Source of the DNA: Mytilus trossulus
Lineage: Eukaryota
DNA length: 64,000 nt
Direction: 5' to 3'
Assembly: GCF_036588685.1 (NCBI RefSeq)
Contig: NC_086373.1
Span: forward strand, 90,520,001-90,584,000
Positions within the stretch are counted from its first letter, which is position 1, and each line of letters opens with the position of its first letter. Positions 2,025 to 51,917 of the stretch are shown one piece after another. Position numbers and translations under genes: made by a program. The notes beneath the pieces are model-generated. The model searched no databases and was not told the origin of the DNA. It saw nothing but the letters and a program-made list of their open reading frames with translations.

Positions 2025-4100
2025 CCTAAGGAATGATACCTATTTGTTCAAGTAATTTAGGTAAAATGCTTGATTAAATTGAGAATGGAAATGGGATACG
2101 TGTTAAAGATACAACAACCCACCCAATCAGCAGAAAGTAGCACAAGGCCACCAATGGGTCTTAGTGTACCGGTAAACATATTTGATTAAATAAATTCATA
2201 TTAAATAATGTACACAATTTGGCATTTACATTTCAATACAATTAAATAATAAATAGGATCCGGAAACAAGCTGTCAACTTGTATTAAACCATTTCTCACC
2301 AATGGGTCTTCAACACAGCAAGATATCCTCCATCTGGACGTGGGATTGAAAACATGTTTTAAACAACATGCACAATCTCTAAATCGTCAAAGGTTTTGTA
2401 ATTCCACTCTATTAATATTTTTGTTTTCTAAAAAATGTATTTAAAACTATTTAAAGAGAGATAACTGTGGTAAAAAATTTGTTTGTGATAAATATTTAAA
2501 TATTTGTTTCTACTGATAATATTTGAAGAAGAAATTCACAGCATTTATTCAGTTATGTATTAATATGCATTATGCAATAAATATGTTATCAAAATGTAAG
2601 TTGTTACTGTATGCCATTTATGTCACAGAAAGTAAAATATATGAATCTGATAAAACATAAAAATCTCAGAAAGTTCTCCACTGCCAAGTGTTTGATATCA
2701 ATTTTTCAATTTCTCCACAAACTTGTAAATTTTGCATTTATAAACCAAAGCAAAACATGCCAGTATTTACATGATAAGATCACATGTTATGTAAATTTTC
2801 TTTGTATGAAAGACTTAAATGAGGAGCAATTTAATATACATGTAGTTTTAAATTCAATTCTGTGATGAAATATTTTTTTGTAGCATTTCTATTTTTATAC
2901 CCGTCACAAATTGTACTTGAAGTTTTAGGTTTTCCCCCTTTTACCTACATGTACATCTGTTCAGAAATCCATTTTTTACTCCACGACTGCAATTCTCTTA
3001 TATGGTATACTATTGCTATTAGTGTTGCATTGAATTTACATTTTATTCTTTAAGGTTTGTATATCTATGTGCCATATGAATCCTGCTCAAATTTGTCAAT
3101 CTTACTGTTATTATTACACATTTCAGTATCTACTAGTTATGTAAATTGTCATGTTTATGTTCATTGATATGTCAGATTGTGTAACTTGTCATATCAGATT
3201 ATTTCATTAGAAAACTTTTGCATACTTTTTTATAGATGTGACCAATTGTAAAAAAGTATGAAAGTATCAGTTTGTACCATATATGTACAATTAAAATGAC
3301 AACTTTTACATTGAACTGTATACAGAGGGCTATAAACTGAAATTACAAGTAATCCACAAGGCCATTAATAATATAGGAACTGCTTTATTTATTAAGATGT
3401 CTGTGTGCATGGTTGTAAGGTTTTTGTAAGTTGTGACTCCATTATTTTTGTTAATTTGAAAGATTGACCAGTGACTCTGTTAAGTTCAGTATTGACTGAT
3501 CTGATGACCACCTAGAAAATCTAAAAGGCTTATTTTACATTGGTGGTCTTGTAATGTTTTCAAATATAGTCATGATAGTGGTCCCGAACATGTGGTTTAA
3601 GAAAACCAACTTATTTTGAAAATTATACCTTTTTTGAAAATTCAATTAATTGCTGCTGAAACATCCAAAATTAAGTTCAAAGAAGTAACCCTTTAATATA
3701 GTGATTCAGATTTTAGAAATTCAACTGTCTCAATATAAATAACATTTTATTTGACCATGGTCACTAGACAAAAGATAAACAGATTAAAACATAATGAATT
3801 ATCATTGTTATGAAATTATAGATCATACATCTATTTATTTTGATTGTAATAAGGAAATGATATTATTATATTTATAACAAGGAATTAGTGTTTTATTGCC
3901 TGTATTGTTATTACATGTTTAAATTGTATTTAGACATTTAGTTTGTATTACTGAAAAATTTACTTTCAAACATTCCAAAAACAGGTATCTTTGTTTTCCA
4001 AAATTTCTTCAACTATCAGATTTCAATTTGACCTGAAATCTGTCTGTCTGTTTATACCATGTGTATTTCTTTCTACATTTTTTAAGTGACATTTCTATTT

Positions 4101-11062: not shown

Positions 11063-11392
11063 CAGATATATTATGTGGAACACCGATCATAGAATTTTAA
11101 TGTAAACCCATGGGCAAGTAAAGTACGTGGGGCTCTAAACTTCATCAATTATGCAAGTTTATATGTTACTTTTGGTAAAATAACACCAGCAAATTACGTT
11201 ATAAGATCATGCCTACTTTTGTTCTTGATACTGATTGATTGAATTATGTTATACAGATACAATGGGATAAGCGTGGATTCTTGAAACCATGAGCCCAGAT
11301 TGTAAATCAGAATTAAAACTCAATGTAACTTGTCAACAATTTGTTACTAGAAAAAAAACCGTAATTACACATGGTTTGTTTCTTCGGATAGA

Positions 11393-12336
11393 CACATAGA
11401 CCATAACAACTACTGGTAACAGTTTTAACATCACAGAGACCATATCAACTACTGGAAACAGTTTTAACATCACAGAGACCATATCAACTACTGGTAACAG
11501 TTTTAACATCACGGAGACCATATCAACTACTGGTAACAGTTTTAACATCACAGAGACCATATCAACTACTGGTAACAGTTTTAACATCACGGAGACCATA
11601 TCAACTACTGGTAACAGTTTTAACATCACAGAGACCATATCAACTACTGTAACAGTTTTAACATCACAGAGACCAAATCAACTACTGGTAACAGTTTTAA
11701 CATCACAGAGACCATATCAACTACTGGTAACAGTTTTAACATCACAGAGACCATATCAACTACTGGTAACAGTTTTAACATCACAGAGACCATATCAACT
11801 ACTGGTAACAGTTTTAACATCTGACACAGAGACCATATCAACTACTGGTAACAGTTTTAACATCACGGAGACCATATCAACTACTGGTAACAGTTTAAAC
11901 ATCACAGAGACCATATCAACTACTGGTAACAGTTTTAACATCACAGAGACCATATCAACTACTGGTAACAGTTTTAACATCTGACACAGAGACCATATCA
12001 ACTACTGGTAACAGTTTTAACATCACGGAGACCATATCAACTACTGGTAACAGTTTTAACATCACAGAGACCATATCAACTACTGGTAACAGTTTTAACA
12101 TCACAGAGACCATAACAACTACTGGTAACAGTTTTAACATCACAGAGACCATACGAACTACTGGTAACAGTTTTAACATCACAGAGACCATATCAACTAC
12201 TGGTAACAGTTTTAACATCACAGAGACCATATCAACTACTGGTAACAGTTTTAACATCACAGAGACCATATCAACTACTGGTAACAGTTTTAACATCACA
12301 GAGACCATATCAACTACTGGTAAAAGTTTTAACATC
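11393..12336. repeat. 39-bp minisatellite, about 24 copies
   Basis: Unit AACAGTTTTAACATCACAGAGACCATATCAACTACTGGT, with -1 and +4 (CTGA) variant units. Confidence 0.95.
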
Positions 12337-12427
12337 TTTTTCAGTCGTCGACTAACTAAAGGTTTATGAATTGACAATACAGCCAAAGTTACATAATAAA
12401 AATACAAATTGTACAAGTGTTATTGGA

Positions 12428-14340: not shown

Positions 14341-16756
14341 TATGGAACGCCATAGCTGTCTTATGTGTCTTTTTTATTGCTTTTCTATTATAAGATGGTG
14401 CTTTTCTATTATAAGATGGTGGTTTTCTATTATAAGATGATGGTTTTCTATTATAAGATGGTGCTTTTCTATTATAAGATGATGGTTTTCTATTATAAGA
14501 TGGTGCTTTTCTATTATAAGATGGTGCTTTTCTATTATAAGATGATGGTTTTCTAATATAAGATGGTGCTTTTTTATTATAAGATGATGGTTTTCTATTA
14601 TAAGATGGTGTTTTTCTATTATAAGATGGTGCTTTTCTATTATAAGATGATGCTTTTCTATTATAAGATGATGGTTTTCTATTATAAGATGGTGCTTTTC
14701 TATTATAAGAACCACCTATTATAAGGTGCTTTTCTATTATAAGGTGCTTTTTTATTAACCCCTAGGGGTATAAATGTGCATTTCATTAATAAATAAATAA
14801 ATAAATGAAATAAATTAATAAAAACTTTGAGCTCAAAATATTGACATGAGTAAGTTCACCAGCACACTAGAAGACCTGATATATAAAATATTTATTACAT
14901 GTATTTAATTAGATTACTATCTAATTTTGACACCTGTCGTAATCACTAATCAAGCAAATAATCATGTCATTTAAGTTTTCACACCTGAGACATCAAATAC
15001 ATTTAATTGAATTAACTTATATAATCAGATGGCAATCAGAATCCAAACAAAGATTACAGTGAATTGAACTTTTTATTAAAGAATGCCAAAACTGGCTCTC
15101 TCTTTTTTTTTAAAGATAAAACTAGATAGCTGACATGGATTAAATTAAAGTGAGACCACCAATCTGCCGGTATCAAATCATTTGAAAAAACAACAACAAT
15201 GTATTCCAATATGACCTTTAACATCGAAGAAGTAAACTTGCATTCAGTCGTGTTCAGACACTTTACAATAGAAAATAAACGAAGGCCATCGAACACAAAG
15301 TTACTTTTGTATAATACTGCACTGTCACTAACTAGGCTGTCACTATATTTAAATTTAAAATTGAGGCAAAATATATTCACCATTCGGTGAGGGGTCTGGC
15401 GGTCGCTCAAGACCCCCAGAAGCCTTGAAAAAAAACCGCAAAATCGTGCATCCCGAGAGCTTCTCGGACTCTTAGGAGGCACATTATTTGAGTGTCCTTT
15501 CCCTTGGAACCTCAGTCTCCAAAAACAACAAAACACCAGCCAGGTAAAAGACATCAGCCAAGTTGAAAACACCAGCCAAGTTAAAAAATACCTCAGTCAA
15601 AACAGAAAGGTTGTATAAACACCGAAATCTACTAAGATTGAGGTATGCTGATAATGGCAGTCAAGATCATCAGATACTTCTTACTGACAGTCAACCTTCT
15701 GTGAAGAAAGAAAATCCTGTTAATATATTTAAAACCAAAGACCTAAAATTTAATTATAGATGTGCGAATCTCTTCATGTATCATATATGTCTCTGTTAAA
15801 CACATCGGCGAATGTGAATTCAGTCCGGTCAACTTTTTTAGCAGAAACATATTTGTTTTTACTATAAATTTATATTTTCGTATAATTTGTTTTTAAATTT
15901 CACAGATTCCTGAATTACTTGGACAATTATTGTCAAAGATATTAACACTTGTTGTCGACAAGTTGAATATATGTACAGCGTATAACGACGAGTGTGAATA
16001 CCGTCCGGTCAACTTTATTTGCTCAAAAATATTTTTTTTTCACTTATTTTGTTTGATTTTCATAAAATATATTTTAATATCTTTAAGGTCTACAAATATT
16101 AAACAAATCTACCGAATAACAAAAAAGTTATGACTATTTATATCTCGTCCGGTAAACCGTCTTGTCACTATCCGGACAATCGTCTTGTCATTAGTGGTTC
16201 CCCACACTCCCGGTTAATCACGGGAACCACCATCACATAATAAAAAAGCACCTTATAATAGAAAAGCACCTTATAATAGAAAAGCACCTTATAATAAAAA
16301 AGCACCTTATAATAGAAAAAGCACCTTATAATAGAAAAGCACCTTATAATAGAAAACCACCTTATAATAGAAAAGCACCTTATAATAAAAAAGCACCTTA
16401 TAATAAAAAAGCACCTTATAATAGAAAAGCACCTTATAATAGAAAAGCACCTTATAATAGAAAACCACCATCTTATAATAGAAAAGCACCATCTTATAAT
16501 AGAAAACCATCATCTTATAATAGAAAAGCACCATCTTATAATAGAAAAGCACCATCTTATAATAGAAAACCACCATCTTATAATAGAAAAGCACCATCTT
16601 ATAATAGAAAACCATCATCTTATAATAGAAAAGCACCATCTTATAATAGAAAACCATCATCTTATAATAGAAAAGCACCATCTTATAATAGAAAAGCACC
16701 ATCTTATAATAGAAAAGCAATAAAAAAGACACATAAGACAGCTATGGCGTTCCATA
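14341..16756. mobile_element. Foldback-like non-autonomous DNA transposon with ~400-500-bp repeat-built TIRs (IS3EU-like termini)
   Basis: TATGGAACGCCATAGCTGTCTTATGTGTC at 14341 and its exact reverse complement ending at 16756; 21- and 18-bp TTTTCTATTATAAGATGGTGC arrays in both arms; 6-bp TSD TAAATC. Confidence 0.9.
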
Positions 16757-19447: not shown

Positions 19448-20461
19448 ATGTCACTGAGCGAAACCAGAAAGTTACTTCAGCAAAGCAGAAAAATAGTCGA
19501 CGAGGCAGATGAAAGTACGAGTGTAAATCTCATCTTAAATATGATTCTGAAACTTGTTTCAAGCATCGATAATAGACTACAAGGGGTGGAAAAAAGTGTA
19601 GGAAAATTTGATGAGCTTAAGAATATTATTACCTCAGTAACAAGCCGAGTGGTGACAGTTGAAAAAGATGTAAATGATTGCCACAAGAAAATTAGCGAGG
19701 TTGAAAATAACTTACAGGGTGTTGGAAACTTGTTTGATAACCTTAAATCACTTTGTGACACCAATAAATCTACAGTTGAGAAAGTCCAGGACCAATATGA
19801 AGTAGTCAAGACTGCATGTAACAAAAACAAAGCAGAAATAAAGAAAGTTTCTGAAAACTTAGAAAAGGTAACAAATGGAGAAGGCAATCAGTGTGTTTGT
19901 ATGGAAGAAGTGCAAAACCTAAAAAAATCAGTTCTCGACCTGAAATGCCGATCTATGAAAAACAATCTAATTTTTTCTGGTCTGTGTGAAGTACGTGGAG
20001 AAAACACAGAGGAGCTCTTAAGAACGTTTCTTCACAGAGAAATCGGTATTGAGTTTGGTAATGTTCACAGGTTTAGCAATTATCCAAGAGGAAAGCGCCC
20101 AATAGTAGCCAGATTTCTTTACTTCAGTGACTTGCAATATGTTTTAAAAAATGCATATAAACTACGAAACTCTCAGTATGGCATTCGACATCAATTTCCC
20201 AAAGAGATTGAGGAAAACCGAAAATTGTTGTATCCTATTCAAAAGGAAGCAAAACGTCAAGGAAAAAAGGTAGTACTTGTCCGAGATCGCCTTTATATAG
20301 ACAATCATCTATATATACCGTACAGTGAAACCGACGAAAGCCAAATGATGAATGATGCTGAACAACCGCCAGATGAGGTTTGGACAACACCGACCAATGG
20401 TGGCTCTAGACAACCCCCAAAACGTCAACGTGTAAGCTCGTCCACTCCCAGGGGATACTAG
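19448..20461 (+). CDS. LINE ORF1 (coiled coil plus L1-type RRM/CTD)
   Basis: 337 aa; heptad-rich region followed by DLKCRSMKNNLIFSGL, VHRF, RPIVARF, QFPKEI and VRDRLYID. Confidence 0.9.
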   Translation: MSLSETRKLLQQSRKIVDEADESTSVNLILNMILKLVSSIDNRLQGVEKSVGKFDELKNIITSVTSRVVTVEKDVNDCHKKISEVENNLQGVGNLFDNLKSLCDTNKSTVEKVQDQYEVVKTACNKNKAEIKKVSENLEKVTNGEGNQCVCMEEVQNLKKSVLDLKCRSMKNNLIFSGLCEVRGENTEELLRTFLHREIGIEFGNVHRFSNYPRGKRPIVARFLYFSDLQYVLKNAYKLRNSQYGIRHQFPKEIEENRKLLYPIQKEAKRQGKKVVLVRDRLYIDNHLYIPYSETDESQMMNDAEQPPDEVWTTPTNGGSRQPPKRQRVSSSTPRGY

Positions 20462-23400
20462 GGATGCCTTGGAGAACAACATAACTCACGAGACTCTTAC
20501 TCAAGTCTGTTATCTAATTGTTGTAACATAGATACATGTATTGTTGATATTGTAAACATAAACAGTAAATCTCTGTTGGTTGATGAAAATGAATGTAATG
20601 TAAAAGTAAATTCATGTACAGTTGACTCTATAAATATAAATAATTTACATGTTTCAAAAGCCAAACCTAGTGAAAAAATTGTATTAAACAATCCTGTAAT
20701 AGAAAATAGTGACACAAACTGTATTATTGAAAACAAATGTAAATTAGATATTTTAAGTCTGAACTGTTGTGGTATAAATAAGCGTCTTCAGTACCCTGAA
20801 TTTTGTGAACTTTTATATGATCATGATATAATTTGTCTACAAGAAACGAAGACTGATGATTTAGATACAATAAATCTTCCTGGTTTTATTTTTCATATGA
20901 AAAACAGACAAAAATATGGGAAAAAATCTGGTGGTATTATTCTAGCATATAAAGAAAAACTTAAGAATTATTTAGAACTATTAGAAACAGATACAAAATA
21001 TACATTCTGGTTCAAGCTCTCTTCGGTTTTTTTCAAAAATAGATGAGGATGTTGTCTTTGGTATAGTATACATCCCGCCAGAAAACTCCACTAGTGAAAA
21101 ATCTGTTCTCGGCAAATGATTAGTCGAAATTTGATTATGACGTCAAAATGTTTTGTTTTCTTCTCAGTTTTCCCATTGTGACGTCATGAAAAAAGGCGAC
21201 CTTGCCTGATGACGTCGCATATAAAGAGCACAATTTTTCTGAAAATCTTTGCAAAGGAACGATAAAAAAGCATTAGAGAAACAGATTCCGACACTATAAC
21301 TCGTGTATTACGATATTTCTCCACTCTCGACAGTTAAATTTTATTATTTAAAGGGCTCGGCAAGCCTCGCGCTTTAAATAATAAAATTTAACTGTCTCGA
21401 GTGGAGAAATATCGTAATACACTTGTTGCAGTGTAAGAATCTATATATATCACCAGCCAGATACTTTTGATCAAGTTGAAAATGAAATACGTAGCTTTTC
21501 TCAAAATTTTAAATATATTTGTTTATTGGGCGATTTTAATGGCAGAACTGCAGATGAACCAGATTATTTTGAGATCGAAACACATGAACACGAGCAAGAT
21601 TTTTCGGAATTTATACAAGATAATTTAAATTGCTTAGAGACTCTTAATATTGACAGAAAAAGAAAGAGTATGGATTCTGTAAAAAATCGTTCTGGTCAAA
21701 AATTATTAGAATTATGTAAAGGTAACGACCTGTTTATTGTTAATGGTCGTATTGGTGATGATAAACATGAATCTGGTAAATTAACATGTAAAAATACCAG
21801 CGTTATTGATTACTGTATTTGTACATATGCTTTTCTTAAATTTGTATCAAACTTTAAAGTTAAAGAGTTTTCACGTTTATACTCAGATGTTCACTCTCCA
21901 ATTACCGCTACTTTACACATGAATGAATTTACCGCTGTCAATGACCAAATTGACAATTCATGTGATAATTCAGTTAGCTGTAGAGTTAAAAAGTGGGACG
22001 TGTCAAAAAAAACTTCATACGTTGATAATATAGATAAAGAAAAACTTCAAGTATTGTATACTGATTTGGAAGAAACTTTGAGTGACAATTTAGATAAGGA
22101 TAAAGTTAATTCTTTTGTTAGCAAGTTAAGCAATCTTTTTATTGAAAGTGCAAAGAATACTTTTGGTTCCCGAAAAGATACCCAAAAACGAAAATCTACA
22201 AATAAGAAGCCCAAGGGAGATAAACCTTGGTTTAACGAAGAATGTAGATTCGAAAGACAAAACTATCGTAAACTTAAAAGAAAGCTTAAGTTTAGAAAAA
22301 ACAAATACACTTAAACGAGAGGTTTCAGAAGCAGAGAAAAGATATAAAAAGACACTCGATGCGAATAGTAAAAAGTATAGAAAGCAAATGCGTAATAAAC
22401 TTAAATATATGAAAACTTCCGACCCGAAGGAGTATTGGAATCTTTTGAATAGGGGTAAACAGAAAAAGCAACCAAATCTTCCGCTCGAGGACTTATTCGA
22501 CTTTTTTAAAAAACTGAACCAAACGGTTGAAGAACCCCCTAATCAAGAAATGTCTAATACAGATATATTTGATAATGTTGATATTGATCATTTAAACGAT
22601 AAAATTAATGCCTACATTTCCAGAGAAGAAATAGCTAAATGCATTAAAAATCTGAAGAATAATAAAGTCTGCGGTGAAGATCATGTAGTAAATGAATACA
22701 TGAAATCTACTGCAGATTTATTTCTTCCGATCTATGAGAAGCTATTTAATCTCATATTTGACTCCGGCGTCTTGCCCGATATTTGGCTAATTGGAAATAT
22801 AAAACCTATATATAAAGGTAAAGGCAACCAGTTTGATCCAAAAAACTTCCGTCCGATAACAATTTTGAGTTGCCTTGGTAAATTATTTACAGCTATACTT
22901 AATGAAAGATTATGTCTTTTCTCTGAAGAAACACTTTTGTTAAATGAAAACCAATTTGGATTTCGAAAATCATACTCGACAACTGATAGTTTGTTTGCTC
23001 TATACTCATTTTTTGAAATTTTGAAATATAGAAATAAAAAGCTGTTTTGTGCATTCGTCGATTTTGAAAAGGCGTTTGACACGGTTTGGAGAGAGGCTCT
23101 GTGGTACAAACTTCTTTTAAATGGTATTAAAGGGAAATATATAATGTTATTTTAAATATGTATAAAGATATTAAATCCTGTATTACATATAATAAACAGA
23201 AATCAGACTATTTCTCATGTGATATTGGTGTACGGCAAGGTGAGAATTTGTCGCCTTTTCTGTTTGCCTTATTTTTGAACGATTTGCAAGATTTTTTAGA
23301 AACAGAAAATCTTCAAGGTCTTAACGTTATTTCAGATTTACTAGAAGATAAGTTGAACATTTATCTGAAACTTTTTGTTCTGTTATATGCAGACGATACG

Positions 23401-24571
23401 GTCCAAATGTCTGAATCAAAAGAAGACTTACAAAAAATATTAAACAAATTTGGAGAGTACTGTAATATATGGAGACTGAAGGTTAATGTTAACAAAACCA
23501 AAGTCATGGTGTTTTCCAGGGGAAGGCCTTGTGCAGATTTGAAATTTTCCTTAAATGGGGCAGATATAGATATAGTTCATGAATTTAACTATCTTGGTAT
23601 ATTATTTAGCAGGACCGGCAATTTTAGTAAAGCAATTAAAAAGCAAGCAGAAAAGGCAACAAAAGCAATGTATGAGGTTTTAAAAAGAGGTCGCATTCAT
23701 AATTTAGCTATTGAATGTCAAGTAGAACTGTTTAATAAAATGGTAAAGCCCATTCTTTTGTATGGCTCAGAAGTATGGGGATTTTGTAAAAATATTCAAT
23801 GTATTGAAAGGGTACAATTACGATTTTGTAAATTGTTACTTAAGTTAAAATCATCCACCCCAAACTATATGATTTATGGTGAACTTGGCATTTTTCCTAT
23901 TCAACTAGATATCAAACTAAAAATGATTGCATTTTGGACAAGACTTTTATCTGGAAAGGATTCAAAACTGTCTTATTTATCTTATCAATTATTATACAAA
24001 TTGTCGGTCGACAATCATTTTGAATCGCCATGGTTAAAGTTTTTAAGAAACGTTTTTAATGATACTGGCTTTTCCTATATTTGGACAACTCAGCTTTTTC
24101 CAAGCGCAGATTGGCTTATCCCTTCGATAAAGATGCGCCTACATGATCAATTTAGACAAGAATGGCATTCACTTATGTTAAATTCACCAAAATCTATAAA
24201 TTATAGATTATTTAAGGAGACATTTCAGTTTGAATGTTTTTTAAATATATTGGAAGATAAAGATATCTATACGCTGTGTAAGTTTAGAACCACAAATCAT
24301 AGACTTCCTATAGAAACAGGACGGTGGAATGGTATAGAAAGGGAAAATAGAAAATGTTTGAAATGTAATAACAACTGTATTGGTGATGAATATCATTATA
24401 TTCTGGAATGTAAATTATTTGAAAAATGACAGAAAAAAACTAATTGATAAAAATTTGTGGCAAAGGCCAAATATTTTGAAATTCAAAGAAGTAATGAGTT
24501 GTAATAACAGGTTTAAATTAGAAAAACTATGTAGATTTATACGCCAAATAAATAAATCATTTGTTCTCTAG
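20462..24571 (+). pseudogene. LINE ORF2 (AP endonuclease, reverse transcriptase, CCHC zinc knuckle), broken by about 4 frameshifts and a ~355-bp insertion
   Basis: APE motifs LNCCG, LQETK, GDFNGRT, IDY, SDVH; RT motifs FRPITIL, QFGFRK, DFEKAFD, GVRQGENLSP, YADD, YLG; C-terminal CLKC..DEYHYILEC. Confidence 0.9.
21092..21443. mobile_element. Hairpin-bearing non-autonomous element (Crypton-like architecture) inserted in LINE ORF2
   Basis: Interrupts APE between YIPPENS and PDTFDQVENEI; IR pair at 21092-21107/21280-21296; ~70-bp-arm hairpin at 21283-21442 with loop GGCTCGGCAAGCCTCGC. Confidence 0.75.
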
Positions 24572-32308: not shown

Positions 32309-32848
32309 TTAAAAACAAAACTCAACTCCAGTCTGACACTAACCGGACTCCGTAGTAATGAATTTGACATGATTGCATGTGCGCCTCGATTTAAGCGCTC
32401 AATAGACAGTTTATGGTTTAAACTTGATCTGTATAGTGCCCGTATAAATTTATCTCCAAACATATAAAACATCAATGAAATTGAAATGATGACATTGAAA
32501 GTATATGAATTTTGATCAAGCACATAAAGAACAAACATGAAATTAATATATGATCTTTCAAAAACTTTATTGGTACATGTGTTTAAACAATAAAAAAAAA
32601 GAATAATGACGGCTCTAGTCAAATATTTCATAATTCATATAACTTACCACTTTAATATATCTATCCGAAAAACTCACTTCGATATATCAGACGAAGTTGT
32701 TTACATATCATAATCCTTTATTGATTTTACTTTATGACTGCCTCAGCATGCCATACAAATTTAAATCTCTGTTATGAAAGCAATAGGTCACGGAGGTCAT
32801 ATATTTATCATCATTGACTATATTATAAGTGCGCAATTCACTAGCATA

Positions 32849-33926
32849 ATGGTTGTTAGAATAGCAAAGAGGAATACAGCAGTTGTTCAGTATGGAATTT
32901 TCTTTTTTCGCTCTATGTCGTCAGGAGGTGTCGATTTTCGCCTTGATACTTTGTCCCCAAGAAGTGCTCCTGGATTCAAATCATCAAAGAAATTATGGTG
33001 GGCAAAAGAAGTGACACCAAAACTTTATGTTGCTGGAGGATTAACAGAAACGCAAATAAAATACGCACATGATGGAGGATTTAATGGCGTTATATCTCTA
33101 TACCAAGAAAACGACCCTGGTCAGTTTGGGGGTGAACAACTAGCATCTGTATTAGATGCCAAATATGCTGCAAAGATTGCCGGTCTTCAGTTTGATGCCA
33201 TTCTGAAAGAGAACGAAGACTGGGCTTGTGTTAAAGCAGTTAAGAAACTAACCCACTCAATTATTGAAATGGAGAACCCAATTTTGCTCTATGGCAGTCA
33301 ACCACAAGCTGTAGCTTTTACAACATTATTGCATACGGCTCACATGTCAAAACTGGACTCTAAATACGAACCAAAAGTTAACAGTGAGAAATTCTATAAA
33401 ATGAGTGCTCTAATGGGAATGGATTTCACAGCAGATAAGTTGAAATCGGTTGTTGCAGAAATAACAGGTGAGCCAATCGTTAGTAACCCACCAAAATGTG
33501 ATGCATATCAAAATTGGTTAGGATATTGGCTTGCTCATCCTGTGTATAAGAATTGGTTTACTGCCGGTCAGATTAGAAGGGGGCATTTAAAGGAACTGGA
33601 AGTTCATGGATTTAAATCAGTCATCAACATGCGGATGGGTAAAACTTTGGACAGCAATCCTTCACAAGAGACTGTAAACCTCATCAACATACCAGACAAC
33701 GTCAATACTTATGACGAGAACTATAACCCTGTGCGACAAACACAATCGACTTTGGAAAAAGTGGTCTTAGATCCAGCCTTGGACAGAAAACACATATCTC
33801 CTTCATCAATGGTTAATTATGAAACCCAGAACGCCGAGGAGTATGGTGACGAAATTGGCTTTAATGAAGAAATTGAAAGCAAACATTTTAAGGAATCATC
33901 ATTGAAATATTACCATTTACCTTTAG
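32849..33926 (+). CDS. Tandem DUF442/Blh-like protein B, coding exon 1
   Basis: Within ORF 32774-33943; preferred ATG at 32849, just after TATAAG at 32824; two repeats of V...L/W(Y/F)xAGx(L/I)...GFxxVI(S/N)(L/M)...GL/SL(Q/K)(F/Y); donor G|GTATG at 33927. Confidence 0.85.
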
Positions 33927-34421
33927 GTATGGTTGCTTTTTAATCTTACAAATTTAAGAATTTCTAAAAATAACATTTAAAGTGAAGTGAATATTATAGA
34001 AAAAAAGACGAAAAAAATGTTTTTGAATGTATGCGCTTTTATTTTATTTGCAATAAGGTGAAATGAATGTCCAGTATGAAATTTAGGTAAAATTTCTCCT
34101 GAAGTAAATCAAAGGTCCCGTATTAAAGAAAAAAACATTGAAATTACTGCTCCATTATTAACTGTTAAACATTGTTTATAACCATAGTTACAACTTTTTA
34201 ATATGTTTACAAAACATTTGATATTTGCATCATAAATTTCTACATGCTCTGGTTGTCAAGCTTTATTTCTTTCATTTTTAAATCAACTTCATTTATAACT
34301 TTTTCAGCTTACCAGCTAAAGCAAATGAAGTAATATTCCTAAATGTGCACCAGTATTCACGGATTATTAGTTTTCCATACTATATTTGCATATTTAAAAT
34401 TAAGATAAAATTATATTTCAG

Positions 34422-35033: not shown

Positions 35034-35420
35034 TATCCTTTATCTTTGTAAAAACCCATAATTGTTTGTGTCTTACTGACAAATATATCTAATAGAAACA
35101 ACATGTGTTTATGATTTATCATTACCCATCAATTTCTAGTTTACTTTTTTCAATCTCGGTCAACGATACTATAATGCATGATAGTTGCACCATGCGTTTT
35201 TTGAGGTTCCTTTACCTTCTGACAAATATGGCCGTGTTGACTCCTATTATTTTTTGTTTATCTTAGTTTAGACTAACGTGTGCACCCAGTAATGTTTATG
35301 GCTGCACATATGGTCATACTGCAGATAACCTGAATGCATTCTTTGGAAGAACCTTAGTCCTAATGACAACAGGAAATTAAAAAAAAAGAGTTTTCATCTC
35401 GAGAATGTGGCCCAAGTTAA

Positions 35421-37146
35421 TTTTTATACGACCGCATTCAAATTTTTCGTCGTATATTGCTATCACGTTGGCGTCGTCGTCTGCGTCGTCGTCGTCGTCG
35501 TCCGAATACTTTGAGTTTTCGCACTCTAACTTAAGTAAAAGTGAATAGAAATCTTTGAAATTTAAACACAAGGTTTATGACCACAAAATGAAGGTTGGTA
35601 TTGATTTTGGGAGTTTTGGTCCCAACATTTTAGGAATTAGGGGCCAAAAAGGGCCCAAATAAGCATTTTCTTGGTTTTCGCACTATAACTTTAGTTTAAG
35701 TTAATAGAAATCTATGAAATTTTGACACAAGGTTTATGACCACAAAAGAAAGGTGGGGATTGATTTTGGGAGTTTTGGTTTCATCAGTTTAGGAATTAGG
35801 GGCCAAAAAAGGGCCCAAATAAGCATTATTCTTGGTTTTTGCACAATAACTTTAGTTTAAGTAAATAGAAATCAATAAAATTGAAACACAATGTTTATGA
35901 CCACAAAAGGAAGGTTGGTATTGATTTTGGGAGTTTAGGTCCCAACAGTTTAGGAATTAGGGGCCAAAAAGGTACCCAAATAAGCATTTTTCTTGGTTTT
36001 CGCACCATAATGTTAGTATAAGTAAATAGACATCTATGAAATTTAAACACAAGGTTTATGATCATAAAAGGAAGGTTGGTATTGATTTTGGGAGTTTTGG
36101 TCCCAACAGAATAAGGGGCCCAAAGGGTCCAAAATTAAACTTTGTTTGATTTCATCAAAAATTAAATAATTGGGGTTCTTTGATATGCCGAATCTTACTG
36201 TGTATGTAGATTCTTAACTTTTGGTCCCGTTTTCAAATTGGTCTACATTAAGGTCCAAATGGTCCAAAATTAAACTTAGTTTGATTTTGACAAAAAATGA
36301 ATGGGTTGGGTTCTTTGATATGCTGAATCTAAAAATGTACTTAGATTCTTGATTATTGGCCCAGTTTTCAAGTTGGTTAAAATCGGGGTCCAAAATTAAA
36401 CTTTGTTTGATTTCATCAAAAATTGAATAAATGAGGTTCTTTGATATGCCAAATCTAACTGTGTATGTAGATTCTTCATTTTTGGTCCTGTTTTCAAATT
36501 GGTCTACATTAAAGTCCAAAGGGTCCAAAATTAAACTTATTTTGATTTTAACAAAAATTGAAATCTTGGGGTTCTTTGATATGCTGAATCCAAACATGTA
36601 CTTAGATTTTTGATTATGGGCCCAGTTTTCAAGTTGGTCTAAATCAGGATCTAAAATTATTATATTAAGTATTGTGCAATAGCAAGTCTTTTCAATTGCA
36701 CAGTATTGCGCAATGTCAAGAAATATCTAATTGCACAATATTGTGAAATAGCATTTTTTTTTAATTAGAGTTATCTTTCTTTGTCCAGAATAGTAAGCAA
36801 GAAATATGTGCATTAGCAAGATTTTTTTTTTAATTGGAGTTATCTTTCTTTGTCCAGAATCAACTTAAATCTTTGTTATATACAATATACAATGTACATT
36901 CACTTTTTACTACCAACTGATAAATTAAAATAATCTTTACCATTCAGTGATAACAAGCAGTTTTTTTACATCTTAATATTTTATGATGTATTTAAATGAG
37001 TAGTTATTGTTGCAAACTCCATTAGAAATTTTAATTGAGATTAGTTTTGGAATAAGGGAAAGGGGGATGTGATTAAAAAAATTGGGTTCAATTTTTATAC
37101 GACCGCAAATTTTGAAAAAATTTCGTCGTATATTGCTATCACGTTG

Positions 37147-37193
<47 letters not shown>

Positions 37194-39348
37194 CGAATAC
37201 TTTTAGTTTTCGCACTCTAACTTTAGTAAAAGTGAATAGAAATCTATGAAATTTTAACACAAGGTTTATGACCATAAAAGGAAGGCTGGTATTGATTTTG
37301 GGAGTTTTGGTCCCAACATTTTAGGAATTAGGGGCCAAAAAGGGCCCAAATAAGCATTTTCTTGGTTTTCGCACTATAACTTTAGTTTAAGTGAATAGAA
37401 ATCTATGAAATTTTGACACAAGGTTTATGACCGCAAAAGAAAGGTTGGGATTGATTTTGGGAGTTTTGGTTTCAACAGTTTAGGAATTAGGGGCCAAAAA
37501 AGGGCCCAAATAAGCATTATTCTTGGTTTTCACACAATAACTTTAGTTAAAGTAAATAGAAATCAATAAAATTTAAACACAATGTTTATGACCACAAAAG
37601 GAAGGTTGGTATTGATTTTGGGAGTTTTGGTCCCAACAGTTTAGGAATTAGGGGCCAAAAAGGGACCCAAATAAGCATTTTTCTTGGTTTTCGCACCATA
37701 GCGTTAGTATAAGTAAATAGAAATCTATGAAATTTAAACACAAGGTTTATGACTATAAAAGGAAGGTTGGTATTGATTTTTGGAGTTTTGGTCCCAACAG
37801 TTAAGGAAAAAGGGGCCCAAAGGGTCCAAAATTAAACTTTGTTTGATTTCATCAAAATTGAATAATTGGGGTTCTTTAATATGCCGAATCTAACTGTGTA
37901 TGTATATTCTTAATTTTTGGTCCCATTTTCAAATTGGTCTATATTAAGGTCCAAAGGGTCCAAAATTAAACTTAGTTTGATTTTAACAAAAATTGAAACC
38001 TTGGGGTTCCTTGATATGCTGAATCTAAAAATGTACTTAGATTTTTGATTATTGGCCCAGTTTTCAAGTTGGCCCAAATCGAGGTCCAAAATTAAACATT
38101 GTTTGATTTCATCAAAAATTGAATAATTGGGTTTCTTTGATATGCCAAATCTAACTGTGTATGTAGATTCTTAATTTTTGGTCCAGTTTTAAAATTGGTC
38201 TAAATAAAAGTGCAAAGGGTCCAAAATTAAACTCAGTTTGATTTTAACAAAAATTAAATTCTTGGGCCTCTTTGATATGCTGAATCTAAACATGTACTTA
38301 GATTTTTGATTTTGGGCCCAGTTTTCAAGTTGGTCCAAATCAGGATCTAAAATTATTATATTAAGTATTGTGCAATAGCAAGTCTTTTCAATTGCACAGT
38401 ATTGCGCAATGGCAAGAAATATCTAATTTCACAATATTGTGAAATAGCAATTTTTTTTTTAATTAAGAGTTATCTTTCTTTGTCCAGTATAGTAAGCAAG
38501 AAATATCTGCAAGAATTTTTTTTTAATTGGAGTTATCTTTCTTTGTCCAGAATCAACTTAAATCTTTGTTATATACAATATACAATGTATATTCACTTTT
38601 TACTACCAACTGATAAATTTAAATAATCTTTACCATTCAGTGATAACAAGCAGTTTTTTTACATCTTAATATTTTATGATGTATTTAAATGAGTAGTAAT
38701 TGTTGCAAACTCCATTAGAATATTTTAATTGAAATTAGTTTTGGAATAAGGGAAAGGGGGATGTGAATAAAAAATTGGGTTCAATTTTTCTCATTTGAAA
38801 TTTCATAAATAAAAAGAAAATTTCTTCAAACATTTTTTTGAGAGGATTAATATTCAACAGCATAGTGAATTGCTCTAAGAGAAATCAAAAATTTTAAGTT
38901 CATTTGAATACATTCATTCTGTGTCAGAAACCTATGCTGTGTCAACTATTTAATCACAATCCAAATTTAGAGCGGAATCCAGCTTGAATGTTGTGTCCAT
39001 ACTTGCCCCAACCGTTCAGGGTTCAACCTCTGCGGTCGTATAAAGCTACGCCCTGCGGAGCATCTGGTTCTCATTTGAAATTTCATAATTAAAAAGAAAA
39101 TTTCTTCAAACATTTTTTTGAGAGGATTAATATTCAACAGCATAGTGAATTGCTCTAAGAGAAAATAAAAAAAATTAAGTTCAATAGAACACATTCATTC
39201 TGTGTCAGAAACCTATGCTGTGTCAACTATTTAATCACAATCCAAATTTAGAGCTGAATCCAGCTTGAATGTTGTGTCCATACTTGCCCCAACCGTTCAG
39301 GGTTCAACATCTGCAGTCGTATAAAGCTACACCCTGCGGAGCATCTGT
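35421..39348 (+). mobile_element. Two copies of one HINE family; the second (37092-39068) is nested in the first; both lie in intron 2 of the DUF442-like gene
   Basis: Both start TTTTTATACGACCGC..CGTCGTATATTGCTATCACGTTGGCGTCGTC; two 3' ends TGC(G/A)GTCGTATAAAGCTAC..GCGGAGCATCTG at 39031-39068 and 39312-39348; internal ~160-bp and ~260-bp tandem units. Confidence 0.9.
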
Positions 39349-39779
39349 TTTTTTTCAATATAGAATTACCGTCTTGCGCATCTACAAATCTAGTACAATG
39401 AATAATTACAAAGAATAGATCTTTGTAAAAAAAAAAAAAATTCGCAACATTAGGCACCTTTGATTTGTATAGTATATTAATTCTCCCGTATATACTACCG
39501 TATCTAGCGAGTTATTTTACCTGGTGTAAAATTTCGCGATTTTCATTTAATAAGGTATATGAAATATTTTTGCGATTATTATTTTGGCGGATTCAAAACT
39601 TTTCTCAATACCTCTGCTTGTGCACTTTTCAATTGACGGAATTTATTTTGGCGATTTGTTCTATCCGTGAATATTTACACTCCGCTAATATAATCCTCTA
39701 TACGGTAAAATATGATGACATCCAAATTGCATTTTAATTCACATAAACACGTTATAGTATCTAAACTGATTTATTTCAG

Positions 39780-42469: not shown

Positions 42470-43541
42470 GTATATTATTTTCGTATAATTATTTTTTCAT
42501 ACGATCGAAAATGAAATGTAAATCACATTTTAAAATTCACATTTTAATACCTCCTATCCTCGTTCATGCTATCGTCATATATATGTGTACACCGTGAGAA
42601 CAAAACGGTTGCCACTCTTTGTCTGGGGCACCGCAGGTATTACTTCATGCTATCGCCATACATCTATGTGCATCCTGAGCACTAAACGGTTGCCACTCCT
42701 AGTCTAGGGCATCGCAGGTATTACTGCTATCCAATTTTCAATGACATATTAATAGATCAGTAGCCTTCATTATATATAACTTTGAACTTGAATAAATATC
42801 AAAAGATGCAAGCAGCCACTAATCTAATAATAAGATTCGTAAAAGAGGACTATATGACCAAATGAGATACTTTTCAACAGAACTGTTATTGATATTTGAA
42901 ATCTTATAAAATCTAAATATGAAACACAGAAAACTAAAGAAAATAGCAAAACGTTGACCTAGCAATAGGTCAACTATATTTTTTGTATAAAATGATTATG
43001 ATTGTAAGGTGTATGTCTGTTTGGCTATTATCGTCGTACAATGACCTTATTTTCCAAAATTAAGTTCTCCTGGTTAAATTTGTTTCTTAGATACAACACG
43101 CAATAGGTCAACTATATTTAACGCATGTCATACTTGTAAGGTATACATGTATGTCTGGCAGGGTTCGTCCGTCTTTGACCTGATTTTCATGGTTCATCGA
43201 TCAATATTTCTTGTTAAAGTTTTCTTAGATACTATTTGTTATACTAGTAGGTCAACAACATTCAAAGCATATTTGTATATGGAATGATAGTAATGGTTTA
43301 CATGTATTTCTAGTTTGGTTTGTCTGACCTTGACCTAATTTAATTGGATCATGTTAAGTTTATGCGATAGTAATAAAAAAAAATTGAAGGACGCCCTAGG
43401 GTCGCTATATTGAAGACCAGTTGGTGGCCTTTGGCTGTTGTTTGCTGTATGGTCGGGTTGTTGTCGCTTTGGCACATTCCCAATTCCATTCTCAATTTTA
43501 ATTGCAGTAGATATATCATTTTATCTTTTATACTTTTATAG

Positions 43542-44197
43542 AACAAGATAATGGGAAAAGGCGGTCATCATTGATGTCTATAAAGAACGATTCTGGTATT
43601 GAAAATAGTATGACAATAGATAAAAGTATAATCATTACCCAGTACGAGAAACCTTGGGCTGACAGATCTGCCATTGACCTTGAACCTGGTTCTTTTTCTG
43701 AACAATGTGTTGATAAAACAACTGAGTCAAACACTACTGAAAAGGAAAATATAGAACTCCACCCTGATAGGTCTTCTCAAGGTCATTCAGACGTACAGCA
43801 AAGAGCACGTGATCATGAGAGAAGAAAAACCCGTAAACACAAAATTCAAGACAATGAAAATGACAAAAAACAAAAAAGAAGCAATAGAAAAAGTAAAGAA
43901 CGATCAAGAAGTAACACACCCGTTCATCGCACAAGACGAAAACCACGCAGATATCGATCAAGAAGCAGTGAAACAAAACATCGATCCAGAAGCAGGACAC
44001 CAATGTATCGCACAAGACGTCAAACTAGTAGATATCGATCAAGAAGCAATGAAACAAAACATCGATCCAGAAGCAAGACACCAATGTATCGTACAAGGCG
44101 CAAAACTAGAAGTTACCAATCAAGAAGCAATGAAACAATACAAAGAGCAAGAAGTAAGACACCAATCCGACGTTCTAAACGCAAAAAGCGCAGATGA
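43542..44197 (+). CDS. Unrecognised RS-repeat protein A, coding exon 2 (whole protein ~291 aa)
   Basis: TTTTATAG acceptor, phase 1; IIITQYEKPWADRSAIDL followed by HRTRR..RYRSRSNETKHRSRS repeats; AATAAA at 44395. Confidence 0.75.
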
Positions 44198-44652
44198 CGT
44201 TTCGAAAGCCAAACATCAGGTCAGCGATCATTGACATTGGACGCAAGACATCCACACGAAGGAAATAAACTGACAAAAGCGTAGTTTAACAATCAAAGTT
44301 ATGGTGGAGTTATCAGTAGTACGACATTATTGAAGTGTTGTTAGTATGTCGTATTGCAGCACATGAACTATTTTAAGATGTTGTTTTTTCTGGGAATAAA
44401 TGCAATAACCTAGCATAATGATTTATATTCTAATAGGAAAACTCAGTGCACCGAAAACACTAAAGCCCTTATCAAAAACACATCACAGGGATTTAGTATT
44501 TTAACGTCATTAATAGTCAAAGAAGACATGACTAGTGCAATGTCAAAAATTAATGTATCGACAGGTAGTAGTATAGTGAAGAGCGACATCTATAGAAATA
44601 AAAGTTAACGTGTCTGTGTCTCTATACATCTCGCCTCAAAAGATAATGAAAT

Positions 44653-48227: not shown

Positions 48228-49746
48228 GTACATTGTTTTCATATAATTAATTTTTCAAACGATCGAAAAGGAAATGTAAATCACATTAATACCTCCTATC
48301 GCCTTACATATGTTCACCCTTAGCACAAAACAATTGCCACTTTTACTCTGGTGTTACTGCTTCATATATATCCAATTTTGATTTCAATGACATATTGATG
48401 GATCATTAGACTTCATTACATATATAATATTGAACAAAAAATATCAAAAGATACAACATTTTGCAGTCGCAAACCTTACAAGAGAGCACTATGAACAAAT
48501 GAGATACTCTGCAACAGAACGTGCATTGATATTTGAAATCATGAAATCTCAATATACAACACAGAAAACGAAAAAAGCCACACCAGCACTAGAAAATATC
48601 AAAGGAGAATAGAAAAATTACAATAAAAAAATAACAAGAAGCACAATGAATATTTTTTTTTACTGTAATATTCAACTAGTGTTTATGCATTTTTGAAGCA
48701 ATCTTTAACAGGAACGTTCCGAGCCAAATGGTTGTACAGACGCAGGGGTATAAATACATGAGCAATAGTGTGCATGAAAAAAACCCACCAAAAAAACATC
48801 CTTCATTTATGCCTAAAGGAGTTGCAATCGTTCCTCGTAGTTTCCGTTTAATAAAAGAGAAAAGAAAGATAACAAAGGGACAACAAAATCACAAGTGGAA
48901 GAAAACCCGACACTACCAAAAAACCAAACAAGATAACCACAATCTAGAAACACTATAAATAAAAATTAAAACACAGCGACACGAAACCAACAAAAATCGA
49001 AGGCGGTCCAGAAGGGTATGCATATCTCCTATTTCACATGTGTCACCGGCCCATCGTGTTGAAAATGGCAAGTGCAAATTCGATGACCATTCATTCGGTC
49101 ATGCCGCAAACAAGGAAAAAAGACGTGAATATTGAAATTGACAATGGGAAGCGTTTGAAATTGAAATATTTTGCATCGGAAGGCACCCATAACCAAAATA
49201 ATTAATGATATAATTTTCATATAAACATGTAAAGGTAAAATAGCTGTATCCCCTGGTGACGAGATAATTGAGCGTTTACATATATGTTTAGGTCCGTCAC
49301 ATTCTCCATGTGACTGTCAGAAGCGAGTGGTCTTTTATCAAGTGACTAACTACCTGTAATATAAAAAAAAAAGATAGGGTATAATTTACAATGAGACAAC
49401 TTTCCACAATTGACCAAATAACACATTAATTAACATATATAGGTCACTGTACGGCCTTCAACAATGACCAAACCCCACATAATGTATTCACCTGTAAAAT
49501 GTCCCTAATGACAAATGTAAAACAATGCAAACGATAAAACTAATGGTCTGATATATGTACAAAATAATGAACGAAAGGCAAAAACATACCACAGCAACAA
49601 AACACAACCAATAAATTACAGGCTCCTGCTTTGGGACAGCTAAAGCATACATGTGTCATAACTGTTTTATTGTTAAACTCCGAAATTTGGAGACGACGTT
49701 ACTGAGATGAAAAACTTGTGTCTAATTTATATTCCATACTTTTTAG

Positions 49747-50405
49747 ATCAAGATAATGAAACAATGCGGTCATCATTCACGTCTATAAAGAACGATTCTG
49801 GTATTGAAAATAGTATGATAATAGATAAAAGTATTAGCATTACCCAGTACGAGAAACCTTGGGCTGATAGATCTGCCATTGACCTTGAACCAGATTGTTA
49901 TTCTGAACAATGTGTTGTTAAAACAACTGAATCAAACACTACTCCTTCAGACGAACAGCAAGCGAAACGTGATGGTGCAAAAAGAAAAACCCGGGAACAC
50001 AAACACCAAGACAATGAAAATGACTGTATACAAAAAAGAAGTAATAGAAAAAGGAAAGAACGATCAAGAAGTAACACACCCGTTCATCGTACACGTAGAT
50101 ATCGACAAAGAAGCAGTGAAACACAGCATACGTCCAGAAGCAAGACACACGTGCATCGCACTAGACGCCAAACGCATCGATACCGATCAAGAAGCAATGA
50201 AACAAAACATCGGTCTAGAAGCCAGACACACATGAAACGCACTAGAAGCCGAATGCATCGATACCGTTCAAGAAGCAATGAAACTCAACATAGATCAAGA
50301 AGCAATAAAACTCAACATAGATCAAGAAGCAATGAAACTCAACATAGATCAAAAAGCAATGAAACTCATTATAGATCAAGAAGCAATAAAACTCAACATA
50401 GATAA
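49747..50405 (+). CDS. Unrecognised RS-repeat protein B, coding exon 2 (whole protein ~283 aa)
   Basis: TTTTAG acceptor; ISITQYEKPWADRSAIDL; expanded 27-nt HRSRSNETQ repeats; the stop is TCA>TAA inside a repeat unit. Confidence 0.7.
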
Positions 50406-51917
50406 AAAAGCAATGAAACTCAACATAGTTCAAGAAGTAAGACACCAACCCGCCGTTCCAAACGCAAAAGCACAGATTACGTTCTAAAAGCAAAACATCA
50501 AGTCGGAGATCAAGAAACATTAATTGACATTGGCCAAGGAGCAATACATCAACACGTAAGAAATATACTGGAAAAAGTGGTTAAACAAACAAAATAAAGT
50601 TATGGTGGAGTAAGACATTATTTAATTGTTGTTTGTTTATCTTATTGCAGCACATGGCCTATAGTAAGTTGTTGATTTTAGGTAATAAATGCAATAACCT
50701 AGCATGGTGATGTATATTTTAATAGAAAAATACAGTAAACCGCATATACTAAAGCACATACCAGGAGTTATTGTTCGTTCTTTAAAATATTCCAGCAGAT
50801 TGTAGTTTTATCATTACGCCATGTCACGAAAAGTGCACACCCACTCACCTTTCACCAGTTGCTAGAGATAAATAATTCTTCAAACTGATTTATTCCTTCA
50901 AACAAGGTTTTTAGTTTGACTGTTATAACTTATAATACTTACCATTGTTTTTTCGCGTGTCATATGTCCATTGTACTTTTTTGGTTTAGTGACTGCTTTA
51001 AAAAAAAAAAAAGATATACAAGTATGAATTTCTCACTTACTATGAGTAAAGATCAGTAAAAGGATACACATATTTGGTATATGAGTTCCTTGGGTTCCTT
51101 GTAACGTCTACGTATAATATTCGTCAGACAGGGTCACCTAGCTTTGACCTCATTACATAGACCATACGTCATTAGGACCGTTTCTCAGATACTATAAGCA
51201 GTAGGCCAATTATAGAACTTTGGTGTATGGAAATTTAAACTATTGTAAAGGGGAAGTTTCGGTTTGGCAGGTTTCATCTGACCTTGACCTCTTTTCATTG
51301 TTTATTGGTTTATGTCGAGTTTTTGTCGAGCCTGCGACTTCTGTTGCAGAGAGCTCGACATATGGATGGTGATCTGGCGGCTATACTATGTAGTATAACA
51401 AAATCCGAGTTCTAAATTTAAAATGGATTGGAGAGCGACACTAGCTCATTAGAGCCTCTAGTTTATTATTATTTTACATGCACTATATAGTTAGTATTAA
51501 ACCAAATTAGTTGGCTCATCCGGGAAACAAATATAAAGTCTCAAAGTGGACACATATATGTAAGACTACGCTAAGTTTGACTTTGAAAATGTGTATTTAC
51601 AGAGAAGAGCGAATTACTCAAAAGATGAAACATTTTTACATATTTGGCCTATTTGAGGATACCAACATAATTTTATTGAACCCTATCTTGAATTTCACTA
51701 TGCCTTTGTAGTTTTGAACATTTCAGTGAGTGCTTGTAACTCATATGTCAAATTGAACTTGAAATTTCAGATACATGTACTATGAAAAGAAGTCTGCTTA
51801 ATATTTGGATATTTTTATTGAGATGATTACCACAGATTGACGACTTCCAACTAAAATCTGTGAACAACAAAAATTTCCCAGTCATAATCGTATAATAGTA
51901 TATATACATTTGCATAC

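Follow-up and report, generated by a model that had tools for sequence, protein, structure and literature searches.

Probable readthrough of a conserved in-frame UAG between the two open reading frames of RTE-X-like LINEs

In a LINE copy of about 5.3 kb from the mussel Mytilus trossulus, the two open reading frames (ORFs) share one continuous frame that is divided by a single UAG, and comparison with many related sequences makes it quite probable, in our judgment, that programmed low-level readthrough of this codon makes an ORF1-linker-ORF2 fusion protein. Readthrough would account for the shared frame, the single stop, the identity of that stop as UAG, the 3' context, an open linker of free length, the missing AUG and the existence of a sister family in which the two ORFs are fused. 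It is most likely a variation on a known recoding mechanism that has so far only been suggested for LINEs. The copy is set in AT-rich DNA of the window, by which we mean the whole stretch of 64,000 nucleotides that was analysed (NCBI RefSeq assembly GCF_036588685.1, contig NC_086373.1, positions 90,520,001 to 90,584,000), and its parts, numbered from the first letter of the window, are as follows.

19448..20461, plus strand: ORF1, 337 aa, with an N-terminal coiled coil, a predicted L1 ORF1p-like RRM and CTD and a basic tail, ending in TAG
20459..20461, plus strand: single in-frame UAG, the candidate readthrough codon; unchanged in 4 of 4 sequencing runs, and related loci have TAG at 50 of 50 intact junctions
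20462..20475, plus strand: 3' context, with G at +1 (as in 45 of 47 families) and the purine tract GGAGA at +10..+14 (a purine-rich tract in 46 of 47)
20462..20752, plus strand: in-frame linker of 97 codons, stop-free, Met-free and rich in Asn, Cys, Ile and Val
20753..21088, plus strand: 5' part of the APE endonuclease (PF03372, E 3e-6), with a private extra base near 21027
21089..21437 (ends approximate), no strand assigned: private insertion, about 350 bp long and containing an inverted repeat, that splits the endonuclease; missing from runs X1, X7 and X10
21438..24429, plus strand: remaining ORF2, with the end of the endonuclease, the RT and a C-terminal Cys/His motif; frame changes near 22270 and 23135

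The order of an APE endonuclease and then an RT in ORF2 (PF03372 and PF00078, the latter matched in two frames by Pfam scan), together with an upstream ORF1 of RNA-binding type as predicted from its L1 ORF1p-like RRM-CTD fold, is that of an APE-type non-LTR retrotransposon, and the part of ORF2 beyond the insertion (21438..24429) matches ORF2 of the related locus L001 at 63-73% identity (tblastn). The copy itself is dead. Apart from the extra base near 21027 and the insertion of about 350 bp, neither of which appears in any of the three runs that cover those sites, ORF2 has other frame breaks. Within the insertion the inverted repeat spans 21283-21442, a CTAGT end is found on the minus strand, and we take the insertion to be Helitron- or MITE-like by its features. 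The window also holds tandem arrays at 11390-12340 (units of about 39/78 bp) and 35400-39350 (units of about 160 and 280 bp), further repeats at 16237-16756 and at 43520-44474 against 49726-50763 (tandem arrays and one dispersed repeat are among these sites), and an ORF of 392 codons at 32765-33943 that is without a Pfam match.

An earlier note on this DNA had described the end of ORF1 as GGA TAC TAG (20459-20461), with a frame that stays open past the stop (GGA TGC CTT GGA GAA) into the APE motifs LNCCG and LQETK, and both descriptions are borne out, as is its remark that the nearby ATG at 20464 opens only six codons in another frame. Downstream of the stop, an in-frame ATG is indeed not reached until 20897, 49 codons inside the endonuclease and beyond the first two APE motifs. 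As a conserved restart site the ATG at 20464 fares poorly, given that an ATG in any frame occurs within +1..+30 in only 17 of the 47 families introduced below. The linker of 291 nt contains no stop in the frame of ORF2, whereas the other two frames have 11 and 17, and it appears to be under coding constraint because none of 20000 dinucleotide shuffles (mean 9.2 stops) was free of stops. Contigs alone, from four public sequencing runs, were aligned to positions 20250-21090 of the window; the TAG is unchanged in all four, and 15 substitutions and one 6-nt insertion in the linker leave its frame open throughout. The openness of the linker in the runs is by itself weak evidence, since only 44 of 873 possible changes create a stop.

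Relatives were gathered by an ORF1 alignment search, which yielded 38 loci on contigs from metagenomes and 4 on contigs from genomes; these 4 all belong to a bacterial bin, G001, from which 30 more ORF1-bearing contigs were taken. G001 is a metagenome-assembled genome labelled Sedimenticola, of about 9 Mb, and its 150 or more RT matches fall mostly in eukaryotic retrotransposon contigs, indicating heavy contamination by the host. The 72 related loci and the window make up 73 rows, of which 58 include the N-terminus of the endonuclease; the 15 others were dropped as short contigs or decayed copies. Upstream of the endonuclease, the first in-frame stop is TAG in 52 of these 58 rows, TAA in 5 and TGA in 1, and at the 50 intact junctions, where the frame upstream of the stop is ORF1 itself, it is TAG every time. 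The eight rows excluded from this last count have a broken ORF1 tail or linker; in six (L001, L021, L035, L005, L090 and L099) the TAG and its context are still visible, and the other two (L030 and L093) are decayed. The terminal stops of ORF2 itself are distributed as TAA 35, TGA 11 and TAG 9 (n = 55), with G as the next base in 5.

Endonucleases of these relatives have a median pairwise identity of 28%, and dereplication at 80% identity left 47 families. The base at +1 is G in 45 of them (in 31 of 32 when dereplicated at 60%), by way of Gly, Asp, Glu, Ala and Val codons, and such a spread over five amino acids indicates that the constraint acts on the base. At least four of the five positions +10..+14 are purines in 46 of 47 families, and +11..+14 are all purine in 38 of 47, against a background of 6%. 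Linker length ranges from 7 to 305 codons, the linker is Met-free in 42 of the 47 families, and a Met stands at or before the start of the endonuclease in 6. The families share ancestry, so that these counts express deep conservation rather than independent trials, and about half of them come from one assembly, G001. When viral contigs were searched by the junction pattern, 125 matches were returned and none was confirmed.

The earlier note had proposed such a comparison of copies, expecting the TAG, the frame and the 3' context to be kept as the linker diverged, and had held that a sense codon in other copies, an in-frame ATG before the APE domain or variable frames of the two ORFs would tell against readthrough. 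TAG, frame and 3' G are kept and the linker varies; no intact relative has its ORFs in differing frames; an ATG ahead of the APE domain is largely wanting, with the exceptions counted above. A sense codon does occur, yet in an intact sister family (L106) that forms a full ORF1-ORF2 fusion. One could read the TAG as a nonsense mutation private to a dead copy with a single ORF, or the common frame as a coincidence, in view of the dead state of the window copy and the existence of that single-ORF relative. We give this next to no credence: all four runs have the TAG, as do all 50 intact junctions, many full-length homologs of ORF1 stop right after the basic tail, and on our reading of these alignments the conservation data refute it.

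The element is best described as RTE-X-like, a placement made by resemblance, as the tree described here contained no RTEX reference sequence. In a quick RT tree of 76 rows, from which a motif filter left out several loci, the window falls in a clade of 45 rows (SH-aLRT 94), apart from Crack-like and CR1-like groups. By eye, 60 of 96 residues around the catalytic motif of the RT are identical to those of RTEX-10_CGi, including a long insert before the motif. Likewise by eye, a consensus published for RTE-X (S. grandis 37) appears to begin with TAG-G and a purine tract and to run in a frame without Met into the endonuclease. The RTE-X (RTEX) LINEs of bivalves similarly combine an APE with an RT in about 5 kb, according to the parts consulted of Martelossi et al. 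(2023, PMC10294476); those parts describe no mechanism of ORF2 expression and do not take up the junction of the S. grandis consensus, and in the main text the word “readthrough” is absent and ORF1 appears once. A paper on gastropod LINEs and its supplement contain nothing on the junction, and within the literature searched, which took in sources outside Repbase Reports and subscription journals and some of them in part, we found no report of stop readthrough for RTE-X or other animal LINEs. Curators of Repbase may have noted the in-frame stop.

The junction resembles what is known as the type III readthrough context, defined as UAG-G or UAG-GGR in the sections seen of PMC3542737 and by hexamers that include UAGGGV in those of PMC13517186. 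Here too an in-frame UAG lies between two ORFs, and the window hexamer, UAGGGA, fits UAGGGV in its 3'-adjacent G and purine and is that of MoMLV (PMC13517186, consulted in part). The strict hexamers (UAGGGV, UAGGUA and UAGGAU) are present in only 23 of the 47 families. Gammaretroviral gag-pol and the replicase of the Tombusviridae share with the LINEs, so far as the consulted portions of PMC3542737 and PMC13517186 describe them, the in-frame UAG, the G or GGR next to it, a purine-rich stretch downstream, and an abundant protein encoded upstream of a polymerase. Unlike those viral hosts of the signal, the LINE is a non-LTR retrotransposon, and Pfam scans of the element found no protease domain. 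The earlier note had envisaged an ORF1-ORF2 fusion made by readthrough of UAG GGA UGC; the fusion by readthrough is supported by the comparisons above, and the conserved signal would be UAG-G with a purine tract rather than UAG GGA UGC as such.

A 3' structure is generally needed for type III readthrough, and the viral type requires a pseudoknot or long-range pairing (PMC13517186, in the excerpts consulted), whereas none was found at the LINE junction. The downstream stem or pseudoknot that the earlier note proposed to look for did not materialise in the window copy, where the junction folds no better than shuffled sequences (z-scores +0.36 to +1.63, with pseudoknots outside the folding model). 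A z-score profile of sliding 60-nt segments across the 47 families has a small dip at the stop of only -0.41 +/- 0.20 and no clear structured zone, and in 20 elements there is neither an excess of long-range pairing partners (10.2 vs 9.9 nt) nor a common position for them. In 37 of 47 families a short stem near +11/+12 encloses a purine-rich loop, a modest enrichment over the 29.4 +/- 2.9 obtained after shuffling (4 of 500 shuffles reach 37); two small subclades retain it as three base pairs, and one of the two, with six members, has one two-sided change between U-A and C-G. We treat this stem as a lead only.

The strictness with which UAG is kept would also follow from A-to-I editing of UAG to UIG (Trp), as in hepatitis delta virus, a mechanism treated in the portions consulted of PMC3542737. 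We think it very unlikely here: no duplex was found around the stop, and a possible RNA run (X6, a status that is guessed and based on contigs only) has TAG. Under cis-preference, moreover, reverse transcription of an edited RNA would leave TGG in the DNA, but not one of the 50 intact junctions reads TGG, and the codon of the only intact sense-codon family is TTC. Splicing could remove the stop if TAG/G were a 3' splice acceptor, whose consensus it fits, and the gene models P0113 and P0115 do join ORF1 to ORF2, apparently by a predicted intron. We consider this extremely unlikely, for the sequence lacks a pyrimidine tract (T makes up 18% at -20..-3 and 17% further upstream), another AG lies within 20 nt upstream in 27 of 47 families, an acceptor would work in any frame, the four runs contain no joints, and a retroposed spliced RNA would be expected to lose the stop.

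The main rival is AUG-independent termination and reinitiation, in which ribosomes would terminate at the UAG and then begin again on some non-AUG codon close by, giving a free ORF2. Reinitiation is used by SART1 and L1 (PMC5972666, parts consulted), and L1 ORF2 still retrotransposes when its AUG is changed to other sense codons (PMC1965478, parts consulted, citing L1 work). In our own set a near-cognate in-frame codon lies within the first 10 codons in 26 of 47 families, and one RTE-X-like subclade (L114, L116, L121, L124, L126, L136 and L141) has ATA, ATT, GTA or GTT directly after a TAG that is separated from the first endonuclease motif by only about two codons. This subclade is the best test case for readthrough against a non-AUG restart. 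Even so, we rate reinitiation as unlikely: it needs neither the same frame, nor UAG over UAA or UGA, nor an open linker of up to 305 codons, all three of which are kept, and 21 of the 47 families have no near-cognate codon in the first 10.

The fused sister family bears on the same question, since an intact sense-codon fusion supports readthrough and sits poorly with a restart that would release ORF2. L106 (contig C632 of G001, junction near 3732-3810 on the minus strand) has one intact ORF1-ORF2 frame of 1487 aa, with TTC at the site that aligns without an indel to the TAG of L109, L122 and L102, and it is 71% identical to L109 in DNA over 4.4 kb. To judge from this one contig, the fused ORF1-linker-ORF2 protein exists as an intact natural family. 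The arrangement is absent from 20 control LINEs of the same assembly (L1/Tx1-like, CR1-Zenon-like and most CR1-like, labels given by motif resemblance), which indicates that the host reads TAG as an ordinary stop. Among the 13 controls with a long upstream frame, that frame differs from the frame of ORF2 in 11 and is far away in 2, and a Met of its own precedes the endonuclease in 15 of the 16 in which the endonuclease was located.

Sixty further G001 contigs were picked by RT match alone, and among them 15 RTE-X-like elements with other ORF1 sequences have ORF1, TAG and ORF2 in frame; four elements could not be judged, and the contigs of this set that enter no count here are of other types or truncated. 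The base following the stop in these 15 is G in 10, A in 3 and T in 2, so that the +1 G is weaker than in the 47 families, and a Met precedes the endonuclease in 1. The arrangement also extends to other lineages. Seven members of a Crack-like clade (L133, L144, L146, L147, L150, L152 and L153) have an in-frame TAG and then a long linker and the endonuclease, with an ORF1 of 600-660 codons that has a C-terminal CCHC motif and includes a GDSL esterase in 3 of 3 scanned; the linker contains a Met in 6 of the 7, and the clade possibly represents a separate origin of the same arrangement. Three CR1-like elements (L154, L160 and L161) have an in-frame TAG GAT between ORF1 and ORF2, and in their near relative L134 ORF1 is overlapping and out of frame.

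The ORF1 protein offers a possible reason for making the enzyme as a fusion. Its closest named homologs are from Mytilus (85% to M. coruscus), its coiled coil comes from sequence-search matches, and against Pfam and PDB sequences only coiled-coil matches were obtained. A structural model (pLDDT 81.6) is predicted to carry the RRM-CTD fold of L1 ORF1p, all of the top 10 Foldseek matches being human L1 ORF1p (E 2e-6 to 5e-5). Many full-length homologs stop just past the basic tail, and a search for longer ones gave nine proteins, of which one is a chimera and the others are ORF1s with long tails or gene models that apparently pass over the junction; we accepted none of the nine as evidence of a natural fusion. 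In a single contig, P0108 has Gln where P0070 ends and then runs into the endonuclease, and the database models P0113 and P0115 bridge the two ORFs over the stop, apparently via predicted introns.

We infer the following course for readthrough. A near-cognate tRNA would decode the UAG in a small share of ribosomes, aided by the +1 G and by the purine tract at +10..+14, which would lie about where mRNA enters the ribosome (the entry channel is placed at +9..+11 in the consulted parts of PMC13517186), and in some subclades perhaps also by a short hairpin. The endonuclease and RT are likely made only as an ORF1-linker-ORF2 fusion, and the output would be much ORF1p and little fusion, like gammaretroviral Gag and Gag-Pol. 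Given the coiled coil and the L1 ORF1p-like fold of ORF1, the rare fusion could co-assemble with abundant ORF1p, its coiled coil carrying the enzyme into the ORF1p-coated RNP.

Such a route would set these elements apart from the better-known bicistronic LINEs. Human L1 and SART1 of the silkworm are also bicistronic, and the mussel ORF1 is predicted to share the RRM-CTD fold of L1 ORF1p, yet they produce a free ORF2 by reinitiation at an AUG that either follows a spacer or overlaps the stop (PMC5972666, PMC1965478 and PMC5009743, each consulted in part), whereas the RTE-X-like junction is usually without an AUG and continuous in frame. Closer in kind is a suggestion made for ciliates. Paramecium reads UAG as Gln, and the stop of its LINE group 3 therefore cannot be UAG. 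For this group, a separate ciliate clade, read-through was suggested in one sentence by Guerin et al. (2017, PMC5405496), in the parts consulted without an analysis of context or a test.

It has long been asked how LINEs produce ORF2 when their RNA is bicistronic, and an answer is available only for a few reinitiating elements. A conserved single-UAG junction in dozens of diverged families, with a naturally fused sister as control, presents a testable second solution that parallels retroviral Gag-Pol, and the families offer many naturally varied forms of a short sequence that may act as a readthrough signal. It also explains the doubtful introns that bridge the junction in gene predictions and an ORF2 without a start codon. 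The broader claim seems to us evenly balanced between right and wrong: that readthrough is the standard route to ORF2 in a whole ancient RTE-X-like lineage of invertebrates and in separate Crack-like and CR1-like lineages, that its signal is compact and largely linear (UAG-G and a purine tract at +10..+14), unlike the viral type that depends on a pseudoknot, and that the RT would enter the RNP as a fusion to ORF1p.
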